A DNA stretch of 64,000 nucleotides from Bacteroidaceae bacterium. GTDB lineage: Bacteria > Bacteroidota > Bacteroidia > Bacteroidales > Bacteroidaceae. Numbering within the stretch: the stretch's first letter is position 1; every line of letters starts with the position of its first letter. Of this stretch, positions 4,177 through 50,191 are shown piece after piece. The notes beneath the pieces were generated by a model. The model saw only the letters and a list, made by a program, of their open reading frames with translations, searched no databases and was not told the DNA's origin. The stretch spans positions 2,531 through 66,530 of the forward strand of contig JAKSIQ010000007.1 of assembly GCA_024398755.1 (NCBI GenBank), read 5' to 3'. Made by a program: the position numbers and the translations under genes.

Positions 4177-6135
4177 TTAGTTCTTATAGTTACGGGTCTG
4201 TACCTTGATGTATTCGTAGTTCAGAGGTTCCTTGAGCAGTTCAGGAGCCTTGCCTTCGCCCTGATAGTTCCAGCAGGCAACGTATGAGAACTGGTCGTCG
4301 TGACGCAGAGCCTCGCCTTCGGGAGTCTGATGCTCTTCACGGAAATGACCGCCGCATGACTCTTCACGGTTCAGACCGTCGTAAGCCATGAGCTTGCCGA
4401 TTTCAATGAAGTCAAGCAGACGCAGAGCCTTTTCAAGTTCTACATTCAGTGTCTGTGCATTACCAGGAACGCGCAGGTCTGACCAGAAGGTCTTCTCAAC
4501 TTCGTCAAGCTTTGCAAGAGCGGTCTTCAGAGATTCCTCCGTGCGGCCCATACCTACGTATTCCCACATGATGTGACCCAGTTCCTTATGGATTGAATCT
4601 ACAGAACGCTTTCCGTTGATGCCCATAATCTTGGCAATCTTGGCCTTGACGGCATTTTCGGCAGCCTCGAACTCAGGCAGGTCGGTGCTGAAGCGCGGAA
4701 CCTGGATCTGGTCTGACAGATAGTTCTGGATGGTATACGGAAGTACGAAATAGCCGTCGGCCAAACCCTGCATGAGGGCCGATGCGCCCAGACGGTTGGC
4801 TCCGTGGTCTGAGAAGTTGCATTCGCCGATAGCGAACAGGCCCGGTATTGAGGTCTGCAGTTCGTAGTCAACCCAGATACCGCCCATGGTGTAGTGGATG
4901 GCCGGGAAGATCATCATCGGGTTCTCGTACGGGTTCACATCGGTGATTTCCTCGTACATATCGAACAGGTTACCGTACTTGTCGGCTACGGCCTGCTTGC
5001 CAAGACGCTGGATAGCGTACTTGAAGTCAAGGAATACGGCAAGACCGGTGTTGTTTACGCCGAAGCCCTTGTCGCAACGCTCCTTGGCTGCACGTGAAGC
5101 CACGTCACGCGGTACCAGGTTGCCGAATGCAGGATAGCGGCGCTCCAGGTAGAAGTCGCGGTCCTCGTCTGGAATATCGTTAGGATTCAGGGTACCTGCC
5201 TGCAGAGCCTTGGCATCTTCAAGTTTCTTAGGAACCCAGATACGGCCGTCGTTACGCAGTGACTCTGACATCAGAGTGAGCTTTGACTGCTTGTCGCCGT
5301 GTACAGGAATACAGGTCGGGTGAATCTGTGCGAAAGCAGGGTTGGCGAACCATGCGCCCTTGCGGTAGCACTGCATGGCGGCTGAACCGTTGCTGGCCAT
5401 GGCGTTGGTTGACAGGAAGTAGGTGTTGCCGTAACCGCCTGTGCCGATAACCACTGCATGAGCTGAGCAGCGCTTGATTTCACCGGTAACCAGGTCACGA
5501 TAGATGATACCACGTGCACGCTCCTTGCCTTCAGCGTCCTTTATCATTACAAGGTCAAGCATTTCGCAACGTGTGAACAGCTCTACATTGCCCTGCTGTA
5601 CCTGATAGCTCAGTGCTGAGTAGGCACCCAGAAGCAGCTGCTGTCCGGTTTGACCGCGGGCATAGAACGTACGCGATACCTGAGCACCGCCGAATGAACG
5701 GTTGGCCAGGGTTCCGCCGTATTCACGGGCAAACGGAACGCCCTGTGCAACGCACTGGTCTATGATGTTGTTCGATACCTCGGCCAGACGGTAAACGTTG
5801 GCTTCACGTGAACGGTAGTCACCGCCCTTGATGGTATCGTAGAACAGACGGTATACTGAGTCACCGTCGTTCTGGTAGTTCTTGGCAGCGTTGATACCGC
5901 CCTGTGCAGCGATTGAATGGGCACGGCGCGGTGAATCCTGAATGCAGAAGCACTTTACCTTGAAACCAAGGTCACCGAGGGTGGCGGCAGCACTTGCGCC
6001 GGCCAGACCTGAACCTACTACTATGATGTCAAGCTTGCGCTTGTTTGCAGGATTGACAAGTTTCTGATGAGCCTTGTAGTTTGACCATTTTTCAGCCAAC
6101 GGGCCCTCTGGAATTTTTGAATCTATTGTAGCCAT
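4177..6135 (-). CDS. frdA: Fumarate reductase / succinate dehydrogenase flavoprotein subunit
   Basis: Start at M21 ([11 protein letters not shown]), 14 nt after the frdC stop. FAD motifs: [33 protein letters not shown]. Confidence 0.9.
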
Positions 6136-6906: not shown

Positions 6907-9007
<2,101 letters not shown>

Positions 9008-40300: not shown

Positions 40301-41842
40301 TTAGTTTCCTTTTCTGAAATTACCTCCCTTTCTCGGACCGTTCTTCGGACCGTTCTTCTTGTGGTCTCCACCCTTACCTGAGAACGGCTTCCGACCGCTT
40401 TCGCTTCCACTTCCGAACGGTTTGTGCTCACCACCGGCGCGGCGGAACGGTTTGCGTTCTCCGTCTTCACTGTGGTTCTGGAACGGCTTGCGTGAATAAC
40501 TGCGGCCTTCGCGGTCAAATCGGCCTTTACCGGAGAATCTTCCTTTTGGAGACTCCTGTGCGGCTTCATCACGTCCGTTGTCACTTACCAGAATACCGTC
40601 TTCAACTTTCTGCAGACGTTCTGCCTGACGTGCCTTGTGGCGCAGGGTCTGTCCGCGACGGCTTACCGGTTCGCTCTTGTCAAGGAAAGAACCCTTGCCA
40701 CGGAAGTCATTATATCGGCCGTCAAAAATCTCGTATTTGCGCAGTTCGCATGGCAACTGTCCGTTGAACAGGGGTATCTTGGCGCTCGGCTTCAGGCCAA
40801 TCTTGTCAAAGCACTCAAAATGGTAGCTGATGACCCATGCCTGACCGCCCTTGAAGGCGTGTTTCAGACGTTCGCCTATCATTGCATACAGTTCCAGCAG
40901 GTGCTCGTCGTTAAGACGCTCGCCATAAGGCGGATTGGTAATCATTACGGCCGGTTCGGAAATCGGCTCGAAGTCTTTGAAATCGGCCACCTCGAACCTG
41001 ATTACCTCCTGCAGACCGGCTGCCTTGGCATTGGCCTTGGCAATGTTTATGGCCTTGGGGTCCTTGTCGCGGGCAATTATGCTGTGTTCAAAAAGACGTT
41101 CCTGGCTGTCATCATTATAGATGGTCTCGAACAGGTCGCGATCAAAGTCCTTCCACTTTTCAAATGCGTAGCTGGTGCGGAACAGGCCAGGAGCCATGTT
41201 TCTTGCTATGAGCGCGGCTTCAATTGCAATGGTGCCGCTGCCGCACATAGGATCCACAAAGTCGCACTGGCCGTCCCAGCCTGACATGAGCACCATGCCG
41301 GCGGCAAGCACTTCGTTGATGGGAGCTTCGGTGGCAGCCATCTTGTAGCCGCGCTTGTGCAGGCTCTCGCCGCTGCTGTCCAGTGACAGTGAGCAGTCAT
41401 CGTGCGATATGTGTATGTGGAAAGTCAGATCAGGATTGGCTACGCTCACGTTGGGGCGCTTGCCGTATTTCTCGCGGAACCAGTCGGCAATGGCATCCTT
41501 AACACGGTATGCCACGAACTTTGAGTGCCGGAAATCCTCGCTGTTGACAACGGCATCGACTGCAAAACTGTCTGAAAGGTCCATGTACTTGTCCCATTCA
41601 ACGGTCTTGCAGATGTCGTACACCTGGTCGGCATCATCGGCCCTGAAATGGAGAAACGGTTTTAGAATGCGCAATGCTGTGCGCAGATAGAAGTTGGCCT
41701 TGTACATAAGGGCTTTGTCGCCCTTGAAAGATACCATGCGGTTGCCTATGCAGATGCTGTTGGCGCCCAGATTGGTCAGCTCCTTTGCAAGAATCTCTTC
41801 CAGCCCCTGGAAGGTCTTGGCTATCATTTCAAATTCGGTCAT
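40301..41842 (-). CDS. THUMP-domain class I SAM-dependent RNA methyltransferase with a ~135-aa basic C-terminal tail
   Basis: Start at M10 (MTEFEMIAKTFQGLEEILA). DPMCGSGTIAIEA (SAM motif I) and NPPYGERL (motif IV). Tail rich in R/K/G with four KPF repeats. Confidence 0.8.
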   Translation of the reverse strand: MTEFEMIAKTFQGLEEILAKELTNLGANSICIGNRMVSFKGDKALMYKANFYLRTALRILKPFLHFRADDADQVYDICKTVEWDKYMDLSDSFAVDAVVNSEDFRHSKFVAYRVKDAIADWFREKYGKRPNVSVANPDLTFHIHISHDDCSLSLDSSGESLHKRGYKMAATEAPINEVLAAGMVLMSGWDGQCDFVDPMCGSGTIAIEAALIARNMAPGLFRTSYAFEKWKDFDRDLFETIYNDDSQERLFEHSIIARDKDPKAINIAKANAKAAGLQEVIRFEVADFKDFEPISEPAVMITNPPYGERLNDEHLLELYAMIGERLKHAFKGGQAWVISYHFECFDKIGLKPSAKIPLFNGQLPCELRKYEIFDGRYNDFRGKGSFLDKSEPVSRRGQTLRHKARQAERLQKVEDGILVSDNGRDEAAQESPKGRFSGKGRFDREGRSYSRKPFQNHSEDGERKPFRRAGGEHKPFGSGSESGRKPFSGKGGDHKKNGPKNGPRKGGNFRKGN

Positions 41843-41890
41843 CAGTATGTTTGATGAAATAGTGCACAAAGATACTACAAAATTTTGTCA

Positions 41891-41898
41891 TAACTTTG
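41891..41898 (+). promoter_or_regulatory. Candidate -7 box TAACTTTG for the aldose epimerase gene
   Basis: Exact TAnnTTTG, 48 nt upstream of the ATG at 41946. Confidence 0.4.
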
Positions 41899-41945
41899 TA
41901 TCTGGCAATCGGAACATTTCAGAACAGGTTCCGATTTCAAAAAAC

Positions 41946-42836
41946 ATGAACATGGTAATAGGAAACGGCATTATTGAGGCTCAGATTAACGAGATGGGAG
42001 CCGAACTCACGAATCTGAAGAGGTCTGATGGTCAGTTTGAATACATTTGGCAGGCCGATGCCGCCTTCTGGGGCCGTCATGCGCCCATGCTGTTTCCCAT
42101 CGTGGGCAAGGTATGGGACGGCCATTTTCAGGTTGGGGACAAGAGTTATCCAATGTCGCAGCACGGTTTTGCCCGTGACAGCCGGTTCTCCGTACTGAAT
42201 GCCGCCGGTGACAGTGTGGCCCTTGTGCTTGAATCGGATGCTGAAACCTTGAAGAAATATCCGTTCCCGTTCCGCATCGAGGCCGAGTACCGCGTGGCGG
42301 ACTGCTCGCTTGAAGTGTCGTGGCGTGTCACCAACACCGGTTCGGGAGAATTGTTCTTCCAGATTGGAGCCCATCCGGGTTTCAACCTGCCGGACCACAA
42401 TCCCGCCGATTACATACACGGTTATTTCCGCCTGCTGTCAGAAGGGGAGCCGGTCCGCAGTCTTATTGTCGGCAAGCTGACTCCTGACGGCTACCGCAGC
42501 GATGAGGCAGGCCTTATGTCGCTTGATACCGATGCCATGTTGCCGGTTACACCCGGTCTGTTTGCGGCCGATGCGCTCGTTCTTGAGGAACATCAGACCG
42601 ACTGTGTGGAACTGTATGACAAATACGGGAACCGCATGCTGAGTCTGGAATGCCCCTGCGCACCCGTCTGGGGCCTGTGGTCGCCTCCTGCAAAGAACGC
42701 CCCGTTTGTCTGTATCGAACCATGGCAGGGCCGATGTGATGCCGCCGGCTTTACCGGTCCCGTCAGCGAACGCGACTACATCAAGTCGCTTGCCCCCGGC
42801 CGCACTTACACCTTCGCCTACCGCATCACCATCTGA
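41946..42836 (+). CDS. Aldose 1-epimerase family protein (galactose mutarotase-like)
   Basis: Start moved to MNMVIGNGIIEAQINEMGAEL, because the ORF-track start overlaps the divergent methyltransferase gene. Has FPIVG, HGFAR and EPW motifs. Confidence 0.75.
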   Translation: MNMVIGNGIIEAQINEMGAELTNLKRSDGQFEYIWQADAAFWGRHAPMLFPIVGKVWDGHFQVGDKSYPMSQHGFARDSRFSVLNAAGDSVALVLESDAETLKKYPFPFRIEAEYRVADCSLEVSWRVTNTGSGELFFQIGAHPGFNLPDHNPADYIHGYFRLLSEGEPVRSLIVGKLTPDGYRSDEAGLMSLDTDAMLPVTPGLFAADALVLEEHQTDCVELYDKYGNRMLSLECPCAPVWGLWSPPAKNAPFVCIEPWQGRCDAAGFTGPVSERDYIKSLAPGRTYTFAYRITI

Positions 42837-43045
42837 TTTTTTCCGCGTGCTACCCCTCACGATAGGGAAGGAATGCGCCCTGCAGCCCCACTTCTTTTAG
42901 CATTTGAGACTATGGAATTGAGGCTGTGGAATTTACTTGCTAAAATAGACATTATAAATTTTGCATGTTTATAATGTAAATCGCAATTAAATACCTGTGT
43001 ATAAGCGTTATATAGTGTATTTACTGTCTGCTAAATGGTTAATAG

Positions 43046-43090
43046 AAATGTTAATGTATGCCAATTATTTAACTTATCGGCTTAACATTT
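43046..43090 (+). promoter_or_regulatory. Conserved 9-bp inverted repeat AAATGTTAA-N27-TTAACATTT (operator-like), copy L
   Basis: Both arms and the 27-nt spacing are identical in copy R. The right arm ends 16 nt before the -7-like box. Confidence 0.4.
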
Positions 43091-43105
43091 CTCCATTTCC
43101 TGCAT

Positions 43106-43113
43106 CATATTTG
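43106..43113 (+). promoter_or_regulatory. Near-consensus -7 box CATATTTG, copy L
   Basis: One mismatch to TAnnTTTG. It lies inside the longest identical run shared by the two arms, 68 nt upstream of the ATG at 43181. Confidence 0.35.
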
Positions 43114-43180
43114 CGAACACCGCGAAAGAAAGAGAGCGGCGGACAAAACGGAATAACAAAAACAATTAAAAATAAGAATT

Positions 43181-43534
43181 ATGAAAAAGAACATCATCGC
43201 AGCAGCATTGGTAGCAGTTTTCGCAGTAGCTAACGTAAACGCACAGAACTTCGAGTCAGAGGAACCGCAGGCAGAAGTAACAAGTATTGAAACCATAGTC
43301 AGTCAGCTGAATGAAGAAGATGCACAGAGCTTCATCACAATGTACCAGAGAATGATGAAACAGATTGAATGCATCTGCGCACAGAAACTGAGTGACGGGG
43401 AAAAAGCCGGCAGCATAGAAGACATCAAGGATTTCTACTATGAAATGTTCAGCAACATTCTTGTGACAGAGCAGAACGATGCCGCCATGAAGAGCGTATC
43501 ACTTGAATACATTTACAACCGCATTGCAAAGTAA
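43181..43534 (+). CDS. Small secreted protein, paralog A (117 aa, unrecognised family)
   Basis: Signal peptide MKKNIIAAALVAVFAVANVNA|QN. The acidic, probably helical mature part contains DAQSF, MYQ, FSNILVTEQN and EYI..RIAK, all shared with paralog B. Confidence 0.65.
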   Translation: MKKNIIAAALVAVFAVANVNAQNFESEEPQAEVTSIETIVSQLNEEDAQSFITMYQRMMKQIECICAQKLSDGEKAGSIEDIKDFYYEMFSNILVTEQNDAAMKSVSLEYIYNRIAK

Positions 43535-43566
43535 AACCTGTTAAAACAGGGCCTGAGAAATCGGAC

Positions 43567-43605
43567 AGAAGGCTGGTCGCAAGACCGGCCTTCTCGTTTT
43601 TTTTT
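43567..43605 (+). terminator. Rho-independent terminator after paralog A
   Basis: AGAAGGCTGGTC-GCAA-GACCGGCCTTCT forms a 12-bp stem with one G-U pair and a GNRA-type loop, followed by CG and T9. Confidence 0.7.
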
Positions 43606-43607
43606 CA

Positions 43608-43615
43608 TATTTTTG
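43608..43615 (+). promoter_or_regulatory. Candidate -7 box TATTTTTG for the GH31 gene
   Basis: Exact TAnnTTTG, 27 nt upstream of the ATG at 43642 and directly after the terminator. Confidence 0.4.
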
Positions 43616-43641
43616 CAGTAGTTGATACAATAATTATCTGA

Positions 43642-46068
43642 ATGGCTATGTTCAAATTTATCAATTACCGCATAATGGCGGCTGTAGCAATATGCTTGTG
43701 CCTGAATTCCTGTGCAAAAAAACAATACCCTGGCCCTGCCAACGGCATTTTTCACGACGGACTGGAGTTTGAAACCGTCCAGGGGCTGGTAACGGTCACA
43801 GCTCTGACCGACAACGCATTCCGCATAAGGTGCATACCAAAGGGCATCGAACTGCCCGAAATGCAGGAACTGATCTATACTGAAAAGATCGAAAAACCGA
43901 AAATCACTTTCATTGACGGATACCTGGCAGGGAGGTACGCCGGAAGATCAGGCGGCCGTCATCCGAAAGCCACCTTCAAAGGCGGAAACCTGAAACCGGG
44001 ACCCACAGACCGCTATGAGCTGGGTACGGAAAACGGGAGGGGCAAGGTCCTGATTGACGGAGTAACCGGCCTGATGACTTTCACGGATGCCGATGGCAAC
44101 ATTATTCTTGAAGAAGTTCCAGACAGCCGATGCATTACGGCGGGCAGGACCGGCAGTCTCAATTCGCTGTCGGTAAGCCAGGGCTTCAGGACCGATGCGG
44201 ACGAATTCATTACCGGTCTGGGGCAGTTCCAGGACGGTTATCTGAACAACCGCGGACTGACACGCCGCCTGACTCAGGTGAATACCCAAATTTCCATACC
44301 CATGATCATATCCAACAAAGGATATGGCATATTGTGGAACAACTATGGTCTGACCGATTACAATCCGAGCGACTTTACGGTCGAGCTGAAACAGGGCGGG
44401 GAAAGCGGACAGACGGTAACGGTTAATGCTACAGGCACATTGGGCAATGTTCGCGAACGCCGTTCGTTCAACGATTTCACGGGCGAATTTACTGTAAAGG
44501 AAGACGGGCAGTACTCCATTCTGCTGGATGTGGGCCAGGCCATGGCACGCAAGCAGTTCATGACCATTGACGGCGATACGGTATTCAACGTCAACAACAC
44601 CTGGCTCCCGCCAACGACATCGGCCATCGTCAGCCTTGAAAAAGGCACACATAAGGTAAGGGTGAGCGGTTCTCGCGGAGACAAGCCGACAGTCGGAGTG
44701 CGCAAGGTCACAGATCGGACCGTGTTCTCAAGCCCGGTTGCCACGGCACTGGACTACACAGTATTTCTGGGTACTCCCGACGAGATAATATCGGACTTCC
44801 GCACCCTGACAGGCCATGTGCCGGCCATGCCTGAGTGGGCTTTCGGCTACATTCACTGCCGCGAACGCTATGACAGCCAGACGGAACTGCTTGAAAACGC
44901 CACACGCTTCCGCACCGACAGCATTCCCGTTGACGTCATTGTACAGGACTGGCAGTGGTGGGGCAAGTACGGCTGGAACGCCATGCAGTTTGACGAGGAC
45001 AAATACCCGGACCCGAAGGCTATGACTGACAGCCTGCACGACATGGGCATAAAGCTGATGCTTTCAGTATGGTCCAAGATAGACAGGAACTGTCAGGTAG
45101 GAAGTGAAATGCTGGAAAAGGGATATTACATTGACGGGACCGACTGGATTGACTTTTTCAATCCCGATGCAGCGAACAAATACTGGCAGGAATTCAGCGC
45201 AAGACTGCTGCCGACCGGCATTGACGCATGGTGGCAGGATGCCACCGAGCCCGAAAACGATGACCTTTCAGGGCGTATGGTTACCGATCCGGTGACAGGC
45301 GGCATGATTCCCGGTGAGTTCTACCGCAACGCATACCCCAACATGGTAAACAAGACGGTATACGAAGGCCTGCGCAAGGACCAGCCGGACCGCGACCCCA
45401 TGATTCTTACCCGCAGCGGCTTTACAGGCATTCAGCGCTATGGTGCCGTCAACTGGTCAGGAGACGTCGGGAACGATTGGGAGACTCTGCGGCGCCAGAT
45501 TGCCGGAGGTCTGTCGCTGATGGCAACCGGCCAGCCATGGTGGACATTTGATGCAGGCGGATTCTTCCGTCCCGGCAACCAGTACACCGATGCCGACTAT
45601 CAGGAGCGCATGATCAGATGGATACAGACATCGGTCTTCCTGCCGTTCATGCGCGTCCACGGCTATATGAGCCAGACCGAGCCCTGGAGATACCCCGATG
45701 AGACCCGCCGCATATTCGAGAATCAGATAAGACTGCGCTACAAACTGCTTCCGTACATTCTTGAAAGCGCGAAAATGGTCACGGAGCAGGACTACACCAT
45801 GATGCGGCCGCTTGTCTTTGACTTCCCCCATGACAGTGAAGCGCTGAAACAGCAGACACAGTTCATGTTCGGCCCCAGTCTGATGGTATGCCCTGTAACG
45901 GAACCGGGTGTAAAGGAATGGAAAGTCTATCTGCCCAAGAGCGACAGGCTGTGGCATGAAATGAACACCGGTGCTACATACGACACCAGCACCGGGGGAA
46001 TGTATGTCTCAATACCGGTCACTTTGGAATATATCCCGGTCTTCAATACTACAAATGATGCAAGATAA
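43642..46068 (+). CDS. Glycoside hydrolase family 31 lipoprotein (alpha-glucosidase/alpha-xylosidase type)
   Basis: Lipobox LCLNSC. GH31-like motifs: DVIVQDWQWW, GIDAWWQDATEPE (nucleophile region), FLPFMRVHG. 808 aa. Confidence 0.8.
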   Translation: MAMFKFINYRIMAAVAICLCLNSCAKKQYPGPANGIFHDGLEFETVQGLVTVTALTDNAFRIRCIPKGIELPEMQELIYTEKIEKPKITFIDGYLAGRYAGRSGGRHPKATFKGGNLKPGPTDRYELGTENGRGKVLIDGVTGLMTFTDADGNIILEEVPDSRCITAGRTGSLNSLSVSQGFRTDADEFITGLGQFQDGYLNNRGLTRRLTQVNTQISIPMIISNKGYGILWNNYGLTDYNPSDFTVELKQGGESGQTVTVNATGTLGNVRERRSFNDFTGEFTVKEDGQYSILLDVGQAMARKQFMTIDGDTVFNVNNTWLPPTTSAIVSLEKGTHKVRVSGSRGDKPTVGVRKVTDRTVFSSPVATALDYTVFLGTPDEIISDFRTLTGHVPAMPEWAFGYIHCRERYDSQTELLENATRFRTDSIPVDVIVQDWQWWGKYGWNAMQFDEDKYPDPKAMTDSLHDMGIKLMLSVWSKIDRNCQVGSEMLEKGYYIDGTDWIDFFNPDAANKYWQEFSARLLPTGIDAWWQDATEPENDDLSGRMVTDPVTGGMIPGEFYRNAYPNMVNKTVYEGLRKDQPDRDPMILTRSGFTGIQRYGAVNWSGDVGNDWETLRRQIAGGLSLMATGQPWWTFDAGGFFRPGNQYTDADYQERMIRWIQTSVFLPFMRVHGYMSQTEPWRYPDETRRIFENQIRLRYKLLPYILESAKMVTEQDYTMMRPLVFDFPHDSEALKQQTQFMFGPSLMVCPVTEPGVKEWKVYLPKSDRLWHEMNTGATYDTSTGGMYVSIPVTLEYIPVFNTTNDAR

Positions 46069-46555
46069 CAATAACGAACTGTTGTCGGAGGTTGATGAAA
46101 ACGGCAATGTGATTGGCTGTATTACCAGGGGCGAGGCCCATGACGGATGCAAGAAGCTGCATCCGGTGATACACCTGCACGTATTCAATTCAAAAGGAGA
46201 ACTGTATCTGCAGCATCGTCCCAAATGGAAGCTCATACAGCCGGACCGATGGGATACCGCATGCGGCGGTCATGTGGCCTACGGAGAAAGCATTGGCCAG
46301 GCATTTGAACGTGAAGTTTCCGAGGAACTGGGCATCAGCGTTGCCAATGCCGAACCGCTTGGAGCATACGTTTTTGAAAGCGCCCGTGAACGCGAACTGG
46401 TCAACGTGTTCAAGGCAGTCTATGACGGACCCATCAACCCGGACAAGGATGAACTGGACGGCGGCCGGTTCTGGACGCGCACCGAAATTCTTGACTCAAT
46501 GGGGAAAGGAACGCTTACTCCCAACTTCGAATCGGAATACCGCCGCTTCTTCTGA
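46055..46555 (+). CDS. Nudix hydrolase (IDI-like subfamily possible)
   Basis: Start at MMQDNNNELL, overlapping the GH31 3' end by 14 nt. Nudix box GGHVAYGESIGQAFEREVSEELGI. Confidence 0.8.
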   Translation: MMQDNNNELLSEVDENGNVIGCITRGEAHDGCKKLHPVIHLHVFNSKGELYLQHRPKWKLIQPDRWDTACGGHVAYGESIGQAFEREVSEELGISVANAEPLGAYVFESARERELVNVFKAVYDGPINPDKDELDGGRFWTRTEILDSMGKGTLTPNFESEYRRFF

Positions 46556-46611
46556 GCCGGACCGTTCAGCTAACCGGACTTTTCCTCGAACCAGGCTTTG
46601 CAGGTAGAATC

Positions 46612-47073
46612 TTACCAGGAAAGCATTATGCGGAATGACATGCGGTCAGGAATGCCTCCGGCAAAATCGCTGTCGGTGACATATACCGTCAGACCTCCGT
46701 CCCAATATTCGCAATCAATGGTGCTGGTCCACCTGTCACCCTGTTCGTTCTCGTAATGGCGGACGCATGGCAGGGTCATCTGAGAATCACGGCCTGTGTA
46801 CAGATAGCAGTTTATCTGACCCCAGTTTAGAACGTTGCAGGTGATTTTCGGAATTCTGACATCGGCCTTGTAATATGTATTCAAACCATGACTGTCAGAA
46901 ACCTTTGTCCAATGGTCGATGTAGAATTCGCCGCTGTACATATTGACTTCTTCCGCAATCTCGCTGCGTAAAGTGCGTGTGTCATTATCGCATGACATCA
47001 GTCCGAATGTCATGAATGCAATCGCAACCGTTGTAATGATCTTTGTTTTCATAAGCTTTGATTTATTTTTCAT
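46612..47073 (-). CDS. Hypothetical small lipoprotein
   Basis: MKTKIITTVAIAFMTFGLMSC lipobox. Beta-rich and Cys/Trp-containing. No family recognised. The start could be 47073 or 47052. Confidence 0.5.
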   Translation of the reverse strand: MKNKSKLMKTKIITTVAIAFMTFGLMSCDNDTRTLRSEIAEEVNMYSGEFYIDHWTKVSDSHGLNTYYKADVRIPKITCNVLNWGQINCYLYTGRDSQMTLPCVRHYENEQGDRWTSTIDCEYWDGGLTVYVTDSDFAGGIPDRMSFRIMLSW

Positions 47074-47292
47074 GACAAAGATTGCAGTGGAAATTTACCC
47101 GCAAAAGGGAAATTTCCTAAAGTCTTCGGGGAAATATCCTACAAAACGCAGTGAAGGCCGTTATCACAACGGCCTCCACTTACAATAATCAAAAATCCAA
47201 TTTAATGCCGGCCATTGAACCCGGCCGGAAGGTTTGGCGCCGTTTTACGGCTGGCGCCCGCCGTTCCTATTTATAACTCTTTCTAAAAAAAC

Positions 47293-47646
47293 TTACTTTG
47301 CAATACGACCGTTGATGTATTCCATTGAAATGCTGTTCATAGCAACTTCGTTCTGTTCTGTTACCAGAATGTTGCTGAACTTTTCAGAATATTCATCCTT
47401 TATGTTTTCAATCTTTGCGGTCTTCTGATCCTCGCTGATTTCCTTTGAGCATACAGCCTGGATTTCGTTGAGAAGTTTCTGATACATAGGCAGGAAGCTC
47501 TGTGCGTCGTCCTGGCTGAGTTCGGCAACTACCTGCTGAATGCTGTTGATTTCATTCTGAGTCTCTTCAACTGCCACGTTCTGTGCGTTTACGTTGGCTA
47601 CTGCGAAAACTGCTACCAATGCTGCTGCGAAAATGTTCTTTTTCAT
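47293..47646 (-). CDS. Small secreted protein, paralog B (117 aa)
   Basis: Start moved to M27 of the ORF (MKKNIFAAALVAVFAVANVNA|QN). Same length as paralog A and collinear with it. Confidence 0.65.
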   Translation of the reverse strand: MKKNIFAAALVAVFAVANVNAQNVAVEETQNEINSIQQVVAELSQDDAQSFLPMYQKLLNEIQAVCSKEISEDQKTAKIENIKDEYSEKFSNILVTEQNEVAMNSISMEYINGRIAK

Positions 47647-47710
47647 AATTCTTATTTTTTTGTTTTTACTTTTCTGTTTTGTTGTTTGCCGCTCTCTTTC
47701 GCGGTGTTCG

Positions 47711-47718
47711 CAAATATG
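47711..47718 (-). promoter_or_regulatory. Near-consensus -7 box CATATTTG, copy R
   Basis: Same sequence and context as 43106-43113. Confidence 0.35.
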
Positions 47719-47733
47719 ATGCACGAAACGGAA

Positions 47734-47778
47734 AAATGTTAAGTCATAAAGTTAATTATTTGGCATACATTAACATTT
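47734..47778 (-). promoter_or_regulatory. Conserved inverted repeat AAATGTTAA-N27-TTAACATTT, copy R
   Basis: Identical arms and spacing to copy L. The spacer sequence differs at several positions. Confidence 0.4.
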
Positions 47779-47958
47779 ATATTAACCATTTAGCATGCGA
47801 TAAATATACTACATAATGTTTATATACAGGTATTTAATTGTGATTTATATTATAAACATGCAATATTTATGCTATCGTTTTTAGCAAGTACGCAGGATAG
47901 GGATGCAACACATCAAAAAATACTGTAGGTACAATTTGGAAAACTTGTAATGCACTTC

Positions 47959-47966
47959 TACTTTTG
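47959..47966 (+). promoter_or_regulatory. Candidate -7 box TACTTTTG for the helicase gene
   Basis: Exact TAnnTTTG, 39 nt upstream of the ATG at 48005. Confidence 0.4.
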
Positions 47967-48004
47967 TAACAAAGAACGCATAACACCAAATACAGATTCT
48001 ATCC

Positions 48005-50191
48005 ATGGAAAGCAATTATCAGACAGAGCTGGCCCGCGGCTACATTAACCGGACAAATGTGTCGGTCTTTCTTACCGGCAAGGCGGGAACCGGCAAAACC
48101 ACGTTTCTCAAGAGCATAGTTGAAACCACTCCAAAGCGTTGCGTTGTGCTGGCGCCTACGGGTGTCGCTGCGGTGAATGCCGGAGGCCAGACCATACACT
48201 CCTTTTTCCAGCTGCCTTTGTGCCCGTATCTGCCGGACTGCAAGGAGCTGGTCACCGAATACCAGCTGCCGGAATCACATCGCCAGCTCAAGAAAGAGCG
48301 CATCAATATAATAAGGACGCTGGACCTTCTTATAATTGACGAAATATCGATGGTCCGGGCCGATCTGCTTGATGCGGTTGACAACACCCTGCGCCGTTAC
48401 CGCCGCTCCACCCTTCCGTTCGGCGGAGTACAGCTGCTGATGATAGGCGACGTCCAGCAGCTGCCGCCGGTAGTCAAGGAATCGGAGCGCCCCTATCTGG
48501 AACAGGTGTATCCGTCGGCCTTCTTCTTCAGCGCCAAGGTAATGCAGCGCCTGCGCTATGTCACAATACAGCTTACCCATGTGTTCCGCCAGTCCGATGC
48601 GCAGTTCCTTGACATACTGAACGCAATACGTGACGGCAACATAACGGACGGTATGCTTGAACACTTGAACAGCCGCGTCGATTCATCGTTCCGTCCGGAA
48701 AAACGCAAGGGCGGGCAGTGGATACGCCTGACCACCCATAACATGCAGGCCGATGCCGAGAACCTGCGCAATCTGGAGCGGCTGAAGGGCCGCATCGAAT
48801 ATTACGACTGTGATATTGAGGGCAACTTTCCGCAGTCGGCATATCCGGCCGATGAAAGCCTGGGCCTGAAAGTGGGTGCGCAGGTCATGTTCGTGCGCAA
48901 TGACAGCCGTTACGGACAGTATTACAATGGAAAGATCGGTATTGTCGATGAACTTGACGATGACCACATCATGGTCAGAGACCAGGACGGAGGCCTGATA
49001 GCCGTAGAACGCGAAACCTGGGAGAACACCCGTTACGAGCTGGACAGTGAAAGCGGCGAAATCCGTGCCGTGACCGATGGCAAATTCACCCAGTTCCCGC
49101 TGCGTCTGGCCTGGGCTGTGACTGTGCACAAGAGCCAGGGCCTGACTTTTGACCATGTGGTGATAGATGTGGCTCAGGCCTTTACCTACGGTCAGGTCTA
49201 TGTGGCGCTTTCCCGCTGTCGCACTCTTGATGGCATAGTGCTGATATCGCCCATCAGAAGCCAGAACCTGTTCGCCATGGGCCGTACCATGAGCGACTTC
49301 TGCAACTCGTTCCCGGATGAGGAAACCGTTCAGAAGAGCCTCGGCCCCTGCCAGACCGGATATTATTTCGACACGCTGTTCTGCCTGTTTGATTTCTCCG
49401 GCATGGTGCGCCTTTACAGCTGGGCATACGGAATATTTGCGAAGGAACTCAAGGCGCTGTATCCGGCGCAGACGGACACGATGCTCAAGCTGTATGACCG
49501 GTGCAACGAACTTGAAGTCGTGGCATCGAAATTCCGCCATCAGCTGCAGCAGATCCAGGCCGTCACCTGCGGTGACACTTCCAGCCCGCAGCTGAAAGAG
49601 CGCATAAACAGTGCTGTGGGCTATTTCCTGCCCGCTTTGCAGGACATGTCGGCCCAAACCGCCAATATGCTTGCGGTCGATGTTGACAACAAGGAGGTCC
49701 GCAAGAGTCTGGCCGATGCCTCATCGGAACTGCTTCTGGCGTTGGGTCAGACCGTGCAGTGCATGCTCTCGGTGCAGAAGGACGGGTTCAGCGTTGATGA
49801 GTTCAACCGCATTCGCACCAGGGCACTTCTGAACCAGGCAGACAACGCAACTGAATCAGGCAGGAAAACCACTAATTCAGGGAAAAACAGTTCAGGGAAA
49901 GCCGTTTCAGGTAAATCATTACGGCAGCCGGCAAAGCCATCGGCCTCGGAAATTTACGGTGACATCGGCCATCCGGAACTTGTACAGCCGCTTGTGGCAT
50001 GGCGTCGCGAAAAGTACATCGATCTTGGAGTGCCGGCCTACGTGGTGCTGTCGCAGAAAGCTCTTCTTGGCATTGCCGATGCCTGTCCCGAAACGAAGTC
50101 GGAACTGCTGGCCGTAAAGGGTTTCGGCAAAGTCAAATGGGAACTGTACGGCCAGGAGATTCTTGACCTTGTGGCCCGCAACAGAGAGTAA
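48005..50191 (+). CDS. PIF1/RecD-like SF1B DNA helicase with C-terminal HRDC domain
   Basis: Walker A GKAGTGKTT, Walker B LIIDEISMV, QLPPV, and AVTVHKSQGLTFDHV. HRDC-like end: LVAWRREKYIDLGVPAYVVLSQKALLGIA...LLAVKGFG. Confidence 0.8.
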   Translation: MESNYQTELARGYINRTNVSVFLTGKAGTGKTTFLKSIVETTPKRCVVLAPTGVAAVNAGGQTIHSFFQLPLCPYLPDCKELVTEYQLPESHRQLKKERINIIRTLDLLIIDEISMVRADLLDAVDNTLRRYRRSTLPFGGVQLLMIGDVQQLPPVVKESERPYLEQVYPSAFFFSAKVMQRLRYVTIQLTHVFRQSDAQFLDILNAIRDGNITDGMLEHLNSRVDSSFRPEKRKGGQWIRLTTHNMQADAENLRNLERLKGRIEYYDCDIEGNFPQSAYPADESLGLKVGAQVMFVRNDSRYGQYYNGKIGIVDELDDDHIMVRDQDGGLIAVERETWENTRYELDSESGEIRAVTDGKFTQFPLRLAWAVTVHKSQGLTFDHVVIDVAQAFTYGQVYVALSRCRTLDGIVLISPIRSQNLFAMGRTMSDFCNSFPDEETVQKSLGPCQTGYYFDTLFCLFDFSGMVRLYSWAYGIFAKELKALYPAQTDTMLKLYDRCNELEVVASKFRHQLQQIQAVTCGDTSSPQLKERINSAVGYFLPALQDMSAQTANMLAVDVDNKEVRKSLADASSELLLALGQTVQCMLSVQKDGFSVDEFNRIRTRALLNQADNATESGRKTTNSGKNSSGKAVSGKSLRQPAKPSASEIYGDIGHPELVQPLVAWRREKYIDLGVPAYVVLSQKALLGIADACPETKSELLAVKGFGKVKWELYGQEILDLVARNRE

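Follow-up and report, generated by a model that had tools for sequence, protein, structure and literature searches.

Probable homogenization of a noncoding leader next to a synonymously conserved signal-peptide region in two inverted paralogs of a gut Bacteroidaceae bacterium

In Bacteroides, the inversion of promoters and of SusC/SusD shufflons relies on invertases, either dedicated or global, and on inverted repeats that are short and conserved, with a single promoter being switched between genes. Here, we analyze a 64,000-nucleotide (nt) stretch of DNA (hereafter, the window) from an uncultured gut Bacteroidaceae bacterium (GenBank assembly GCA_024398755.1, contig JAKSIQ010000007.1, positions 2,531 to 66,530). 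It carries two inverted paralogous genes, copies A and B, each encoding a small exported protein behind a common leader unit of ~245 nt. The closest described pattern is that of the vpma genes of Mycoplasma agalactiae and the vsp genes of Mycoplasma bovis, in which one promoter stands with several silent genes and an adjacent Xer1/Mbr tyrosine recombinase, with sites at positions -1 to -72 (PMC2268961). The products of these genes are repeat-rich surface lipoproteins for phase variation (PMC2268961). Although it is the closest pattern on record, a programmed switch of the vpma/vsp type is not supported at the locus described here.

What we describe is a known kind of phenomenon, namely, concerted evolution of a 5′ module in exported-protein paralogs. 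We consider it probable (at roughly 0.7) that the leader was homogenized by within-genome recombination and that selection acted independently on the proximal leader and on the codons of the signal peptide (SP). Homogenization and purifying selection are easily confused, and here they would act on adjoining pieces of the same 316 nt; orthologs separate them.

Identity along the two copies and among their orthologs

The window lies on a 68-kb contig of a 1.97-Mb metagenome-assembled genome (MAG). Copy A occupies 42934-43534 on the forward strand, with its leader at 42934-43180 and its coding sequence (CDS) at 43181-43534. Copy B occupies 47890-47293 on the reverse strand, with its leader at 47890-47647 and its CDS at 47646-47293. 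Both CDSs, taken from the open reading frame (ORF) list, encode 117 amino acids (aa). A Sec signal peptide is encoded at 43181-43246 in copy A, with cleavage between VNA and QN, and at 47581-47646 in copy B. The copies are convergent and 4.3 kb apart, and no further family member was found in this 87%-complete assembly. A repeat finder delimited the inverted-repeat arms as 42934-43132/47692-47890 (199 nt, 86%) and 43168-43288/47539-47659 (121 nt, 82%).

In a computed global alignment, similarity between the copies sets in abruptly at TACTTGCTAAAA (42934 in A and 47890 in B) and collapses just past CAGAAC, at ~43252, after the signal-peptidase site. Identity is 34% in the upstream flank, 84% (96/114) in the distal leader (42934-43047), 88% (112/127) in the proximal leader (43048-43180), and 96% in the first 69 nt of the CDS. 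The mature part is 63 to 64% identical at the nucleotide level, 52% at the amino acid level, and 41% at third codon positions, and the 3′ flank is 36% identical. Thus, the whole 5′ part is far more similar between the copies than the mature part (Fisher test, P = 2e-12). The NG86 method gave a saturated (undefined) dS and a dN of 0.32 for the mature part. The initial annotation, made from a hand alignment, had counted 3 differences in the first 69 nt of the CDS and 21 of 22 matching signal-peptide residues, and it had pointed to a core, FSNILVTEQN, in the mature proteins. Recomputation returned both counts, the single residue difference being I6F, and the core is present in both copies. The broader claim, that the 5′ part is more conserved than the mature part, holds with all of its figures. 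The contrary expectation, a leader no more similar than the synonymous sites of the mature part, fails, because leader identity is 84 to 88% against 41% at third positions (Fisher test, P = 7e-16).

We compared the copies with orthologs from a close clade of nine lineages. The A-type comprises copy A, G031, L088, L089/90, and L093x1; the B-type comprises copy B, G028 (two copies), L091/92, L093x2, and L095 (near-identical to G028). Across the mature part, copy A shares 79 to 82% of nucleotides with its A-type orthologs (G031, L088, L089/90, and L093x1), and copy B shares 75 to 81% with its B-type orthologs (G028, L091, L093x2, and L095). Because mature parts sort into A-type and B-type, the A/B split is older than these species. 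The leader and mature trees conflict: Each copy groups with its own type in the mature tree (100/100), whereas the leader tree joins A and B (100/100). Approximately unbiased (AU) tests rejected an (A,B) clade for the mature part (P = 1.5e-4) and an A-type clade for the leader (P = 0.016).

The clearest sign of homogenization within the genome is in the distal leader, where A and B are 84% identical to each other, yet either of them is only 35 to 56% identical to any ortholog; for copy A, identity to the leaders of G031, L088, L089, G028, L091, and L093 is 39 to 56%. Distal leaders of other lineages can still be aligned with one another, at 73% between G031 and L089 and at 67% between G028 and L091. 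Furthermore, between-genome pairs of family members with 60 to 65% mature identity show identities of ~0.65 in the distal leader, ~0.69 in the proximal leader, and ~0.67 in the SP region. The A/B pair, at 0.82, 0.86, and 0.95, respectively, is an outlier from this trend.

Two relatives with paired copies show how variable the outcome can be. L093 holds an A-type and a B-type copy (4467-4820 and 7001-7363) in direct orientation, and their leaders are unhomogenized, with 50% identity in the distal and 75% in the proximal part; their SP regions are 93% identical. G028 has two direct B-type copies (L032, 3298-3651 and 6219-6572), one upstream of a GH31 gene and the other upstream of a lipoprotein gene; their identity is 100% in the CDS and in the proximal leader and 96% in the distal leader. 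This is complete homogenization of the two loci that are only partly homogenized in the window. Because the G028 copies are near-identical from the leader to the stop codon, conversion recurs in the family, to differing extents.

It could be argued that selection alone explains the pattern, with strong purifying selection holding the whole 316-nt 5′ module, as a regulatory element in cis or an RNA element, so that the copies need not have recombined. Proximal motifs and SP codons are indeed conserved across species, and a short 5′ hairpin recurs in 44 of 48 distinct leaders. The 114 nt of distal leader, however, are conserved in no ortholog and still agree at 84% between A and B, and the two leaders of L093 are only 50% and 75% identical. 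Nor would selection alone lead us to expect that the proximal leader of copy B resembles A-type rather than B-type orthologs, that the A/B pair departs from the family trend, or that leader and mature trees disagree. We consider this explanation very unlikely.

The proximal leader of copy B is 81 to 86% identical to A-type and 70 to 78% identical to B-type orthologs (two alignments), with the exception of L093x2 (85%). Copy B is a mosaic at diagnostic sites, where A-type relatives are fixed for one state and B-type relatives for another: Of 10 such sites in the proximal leader, 8 are A-type in copy B, despite its B-type CDS. The states turn B-type around the ATG, between 43161 and 43196, and the site aligned to 43196, within the conserved stretch around the SP codons, is B-type. 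Both leaders, as represented by this one assembly, carry mostly A-type states. The tract is thus bounded by 42934/47890 on its 5′ side and, in copy B, by this switch of states.

We propose that A and B would be old paralogs, each with its own promoter-leader, and that the ~245-nt noncoding leader would have been homogenized in the lineage of this genome by RecA-type homologous recombination between the inverted copies. The event would be a gene conversion, possibly tied to inversion of the bracketed 4.3-kb segment, and the converted tract would extend from the outer homology edge (42934/47890) to about the start codon. Independently, selection in all relatives would hold the proximal leader, and above all the SP codons, constant. 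Four elements would make up this proximal leader: a palindromic GTTAA array, a -7-like box, a hairpin at the 5′ end, and an A-rich tract for translation initiation. Localized gene conversion of the 5′ part had been one of two options in the initial annotation. It is borne out for the noncoding leader by the distal leader that orthologs do not share, by the tree conflict, and by the L093 control; it does not extend to the SP codons, which are frozen in single-copy genomes as well.

Rearrangement of the block between the copies

The segment between copies A and B (43642-47073) contains, by Pfam, a GH31 glycosidase gene (43642-46068, forward), a Nudix hydrolase gene (to 46555, forward), and a small lipoprotein gene (46612-47073, reverse). 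An aldose epimerase gene lies outside copy A and a PIF1-type helicase gene outside copy B (also by Pfam). In the window, the order is therefore epimerase, then A, GH31, and Nudix in the forward direction, followed by the lipoprotein gene and B in reverse, and then the helicase. In most relatives (G031, L088 without the helicase, L089/90, and L091 with a B-type gene), the helicase is followed by a family gene and GH31 reading forward and then by the lipoprotein and epimerase genes in reverse. The block in the window is thus inverted relative to most relatives. G028 has the helicase, a B-type gene reading toward the lipoprotein gene and, beyond these, a second B-type gene reading toward GH31. 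L093 has the helicase followed by an A-type gene, a leucine-rich repeat (LRR) protein gene, a B-type gene, and GH31, the A-type and B-type genes being in direct orientation. Across these genomes, rearrangement breakpoints coincide with family genes, and the leader position that precedes an A-type or a B-type coding part varies from genome to genome. This pattern is the one expected from homologous recombination between dispersed or inverted copies. Within the block, the start of the Nudix gene overlaps the end of the GH31 gene (46055-46068), and the Nudix gene is absent from the GH31-lipoprotein block of G031, L088, and L093.

These arrangements raise the possibility that a reciprocal crossover was the only event, with one inversion, through a crossover in the conserved stretch around the SP codons, having joined the A-type leader on the helicase side to the B CDS. 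The leaders of A and B would then be alike as recent descendants of one duplicated leader. Several features fit such an event: The segment has the opposite orientation in relatives, the switch of states in copy B falls at the ATG and the SP codons, and the copy B leader is the positional ortholog of the leaders next to the helicase in G031, L089, and L093x1 (82 to 86% identity) and has A-type states. A single crossover accounts for the copy B mosaic but not for the epimerase-side leader of A, which shares a lineage-specific distal leader with B (84%). Moreover, the distal leader of neither A nor B resembles that of any ortholog, so some leader-to-leader copying is still needed. We regard a crossover without such copying as unlikely.

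A programmed, site-specific inversion would also place inverted copies around a segment whose orientation varies between genomes, as is seen here. In such a shufflon, the 5′ untranslated region (5′UTR) and SP region would be the target of a recombinase, and the 4.3-kb segment would flip in the population. The vpma/vsp genes offer a precedent, with conserved 5′UTR and signal-peptide regions and recombination sites at -1 to -72 (PMC2268961). A recombinase target would also give a reason for the otherwise unexplained nucleotide invariance of the SP-coding stretch, and family genes are often found at contig ends. However, no tyrosine recombinase (PF00589) was found on the 68-kb contig, the three in the assembly being confined to contigs C12 and C42, and there was no match to a serine recombinase (PF00239) anywhere in the 87%-complete assembly. 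Both copies have the same promoter-like box, operator-like array, and 5′UTR, so a flip would not be predicted to switch expression. There are only two copies, their mature parts are under purifying selection, and the arrangements differ between species, not demonstrably within one. Of all the explanations, we hold programmed inversion to be the least likely. In a more distant relative, L097 (1936-3114), a tyrosine recombinase gene lies ~4 kb upstream of the family gene, which has two tandem GH31 genes downstream; this recombinase probably belongs to an unrelated inserted element.

Some observations weigh against homogenization of the leaders by recombination between copies, or narrow what can be said about it. 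The 4.3-kb segment may have been flipped across the near-identical SP-coding stretch during assembly of the MAG, in which case both the mosaic of an A-type leader on a B-type CDS and the direction of donation would fall. Such a flip is at odds with the longest exact run common to A and B, which is only ~34 nt, and with the independent G028 assembly, which also has the helicase next to a B-type gene that reads toward the lipoprotein gene. Two exact-pattern scans of metagenome contigs, aimed at the orientation of the segment in populations, returned nothing. The homogenization of the A and B leaders holds in either orientation of the segment. The event may have been a conversion or a reciprocal crossover, and the inversion may have come before or after the homogenization. 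Note that unrelated AT-rich DNA already reaches 35 to 55% identity here, so that the absence of the distal leader from orthologs means that it is indistinguishable from background. Because the A and B leaders still differ by 12 to 16%, their homogenization is not recent. Part of the similarity that they retain may be due to selection.

The signal-peptide island, the leader, and the encoded family

The most conserved part of the gene is an SP island of ~94 nt, spanning approximately -22 to +72. In copy A, it lies at 43159-43252 (forward strand) and consists of the last ~22 nt of the A-rich 5′UTR and 23 codons up to CAGAAC; in copy B, it lies at 47575-47668 (reverse strand). The island is 93 to 100% identical among eight of the nine lineages (86 to 93% for L093x2), including single-copy genomes and the unhomogenized pair of L093. 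Across the same lineages, the flanking proximal leader is 70 to 95% identical, and the mature part falls to as low as 61%. Synonymous sites are conserved as well: dS is 0.07 to 0.14 in the SP region versus 0.66 to saturated in the mature part, and 4 of 23 third positions vary in the SP region versus 80 of 94 in the mature part (P = 1e-9). The synonymous sites of the SP-coding region thus evolve at least 5 to 10 times more slowly than those of the rest of the gene. The main family, outside the clade of the window, shows a weaker form of the same gradient, and in the more distant L097, a similar proximal leader is followed by a different signal peptide.

Because concerted evolution acts within genomes and cannot reduce the rate at which species diverge, the SP island appears to be under direct selection at the nucleotide level, of unexplained cause. 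Protein constraint and gene-wide codon bias were ruled out with codons whose amino acid is invariant, of which 4 of 17 vary synonymously in the SP region versus 28 of 32 in the mature part (P = 1.4e-5). A generic effect of signal peptides on synonymous sites was likewise rejected, as the signal peptides of the neighboring lipoprotein and GH31 genes show none. We found neither a conserved overlapping ORF nor a complementary sequence resembling a small RNA for the island; the sole match to a potential trans-encoded antisense RNA, a 16-mer that falls within a coding region of 685 aa on contig C19, was judged to be due to chance. To our knowledge, the Bacteroidetes phylum is without Shine-Dalgarno-driven initiation, and the freeze of synonymous sites could reflect control of export or translation at the level of RNA. 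We tentatively suggest, as a doubtful but possible role, that the ~94-nt island is a functional nucleic acid element in its own right, such as a site for a family-specific posttranscriptional regulator, an mRNA targeting or translation signal, or a homology anchor. If the island were such an anchor, mature-domain cassettes would be exchangeable between leader positions. This would also account for the frozen synonymous sites, the varied pairing of leaders with CDSs, and the assembly breaks that occur there.

We determined the anatomy of the leader from an alignment of 50 distinct family leaders. The common unit of ~245 nt starts at a box that aligns with TACTTGCTAAAA, and its proximal motifs are conserved across the genus. 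In copy A, the distal leader (42934-43047, forward) is AT-rich and begins at this unit boundary. It is followed by an operator-like palindromic array, GTTAA-N8-GTTAA-N19-TTAAC-N8-TTAAC (43038-43086, regular-expression match on both strands). The Bacteroidetes -7 box has the consensus TAnnTTTG, and a candidate promoter, CATATTTG (43106-43113, forward), matches it at 5 of 6 positions. A short hairpin with a CCGC stem strand, a loop, and a GCGG strand (43120-43139, forward) marks the presumed 5′ end of the mRNA. The leader closes with an A/C-rich tract finishing AAAAATAAGAATT-ATG. The copy B leader (47647-47890, reverse) has the same parts, with the distal leader at 47777-47890, the array at 47738-47786, the -7-like box at 47711-47718, and the hairpin at 47689-47704. 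The -7-like box occupies the same position in both copies and aligns with a family-wide block, TCTTAnnTACGAAC.

The GTTAA array is the best conserved noncoding block across the genus, and a regular-expression search of the whole assembly found it only at the leaders of A and B. It may be bound by a protein, as an operator; its GTTAA(G/C) core recalls LytTR-type binding sites. The genome encodes a single LytTR-domain protein, which is unlinked (contig C10, 227-523). We infer that the proximal leader would be a family-wide module of promoter, operator, and 5′UTR. To the extent that these motifs have the functions that their sequences suggest, the family has a dedicated promoter/operator architecture that comprises the GTTAA array, the -7-like box, the 5′ hairpin, and the A-rich tract.

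As its alternative to gene conversion, the initial annotation had proposed that an element acting in cis or as RNA is kept, together with the export signal, by purifying selection. This stands for the proximal leader, genus-wide, and more strongly for the SP codons, at the level of nucleotides; a large structured RNA is not supported. An Rfam scan of 41000-49000 (E ≤ 1) returned no match in either leader, and folds of the whole leader gave z scores of -2.4 for A and -0.4 for B, with structures that differ between the copies. Given the lack of an Rfam match, the inconsistent folds, and the recurrence of only one short hairpin, we rejected a riboswitch-like or otherwise large structured leader RNA. 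The recurrent short 5′ hairpin folds in 44 of 48 distinct family leaders (z < -1.5), with stem sequences that differ. RNAalifold gave no consensus for this region on a MAFFT alignment, so the hairpin rests on folds of individual sequences. Overlapping frames were also discarded upon inspection: An ORF in the +3 frame (42997-43233) loses its stop in copy B, and antisense frames are open only through the A-rich 5′UTR.

Most main-family leaders outside the clade of the window have a 13-bp distal hairpin followed by a T-run (alignment A4, columns 77-112, approximately -190 to -150 before the ATG), and this hairpin is present even where the upstream gene is divergent. Its covariation score is 0.345, versus 0.18 for shuffles and ~0.1 for slid controls. 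It could serve as an insulating terminator or form the 3′ end of a tiny RNA. The two leaders of the window and those of their clade are without it. Downstream of copy A, an intrinsic terminator (43567-43594, forward) combines a 12-bp stem with a T8 run behind it.

Diversifying selection on the mature domain, which the initial annotation had also put forward, is contradicted by dN/dS values of 0.03 to 0.17 in orthologous pairs; the mature domain is under purifying selection. The genes encode a narrow, undescribed family of ~95-aa helical secreted proteins. No Pfam family was above the cutoff for these proteins, a PDB sequence search gave no match, and Foldseek found no significant fold match (best E value, 0.9). 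AlphaFold predicts a small helical bundle that follows the Sec signal peptide (pLDDT, 74), and this model gives the impression of a Spy/CpxP-like periplasmic helical protein. A profile search of 1.8 billion representative proteins yielded only 26 clusters (at 50% identity). Named records come from uncultured Bacteroidaceae or Bacteroidales MAGs of rumen, horse, deer, yak, and buffalo gut, a distribution that is narrow and centered on Bacteroidaceae of the rumen and hindgut.

In genomes of the genus, as many as six DNA stretches per genome matched the 5′ module, the shortest of them possibly being generic sequence of initiation regions; no more than three complete family loci were recovered from any one genome. 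These loci are housekeeping ones, beside uxuA/uxuB, nadE-yebC-pheT, purF-glmS, and metK. In 20 of 54 loci (L036-L087 and L005-L024), the family gene is cut by a contig end or lies <300 nt from one. The cuts usually fall ~15 nt before the ATG or at codons 25 to 40, often just past the signal peptide. Because family genes often sit at contig ends, their common 5′ part acts as a dispersed repeat in assemblies. In many MAGs, the stretch that paralogs have in common around the signal peptide appears to be long enough to break the assembly. In practice, family genes are thus dispersed repeats that both rearrange genomes and break MAG assemblies.

Comparison with described systems

Concerted evolution of inverted paralogs has been described elsewhere. 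As in the accounts we cite of the Saccharomyces Centroid genes (PMC9731477) and of human Y palindromes (PMC8600007), homogenized inverted paralogous arms at our locus bracket a segment that occurs in both orientations among lineages. The arms described in those accounts span kilobases, with near-identity across entire genes. Here, by contrast, only the ~245-nt leader is involved, the arms are 84 to 88% identical, and the coding parts keep their old divergence.

A signal region that is far more conserved than the mature part recalls conotoxins and the antimicrobial peptides of amphibians and mussels (PMC3862624 and PMC5577615). Those genes, as portrayed in the cited parts of these reports, are eukaryotic and exon-structured, and their mature peptides are under positive selection. 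The genes of the window are bacterial and monocistronic, and the dN/dS of their mature parts is 0.03 to 0.17.

Bacteroides invertible promoters and SusC/SusD shufflons belong to the same phylum and likewise illustrate that inverted repeats at the 5′ ends of genes can mediate inversion. Their invertase, short repeats, and single switched promoter have no counterpart that we found at this locus. The vpma/vsp loci resemble ours in that they contain exported paralogs with a conserved 5′UTR and SP-coding region, differing mature parts, and inversions between copies (PMC2268961). Unlike in vpma/vsp, there are only two copies in our genome, their signal peptides are of the signal peptidase I type, and their mature parts are under purifying selection. 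Furthermore, each copy here has its own promoter-like leader, and the contig carries no recombinase, which sets this pair of genes apart from the one-promoter, several-gene arrangement of the mycoplasmas.

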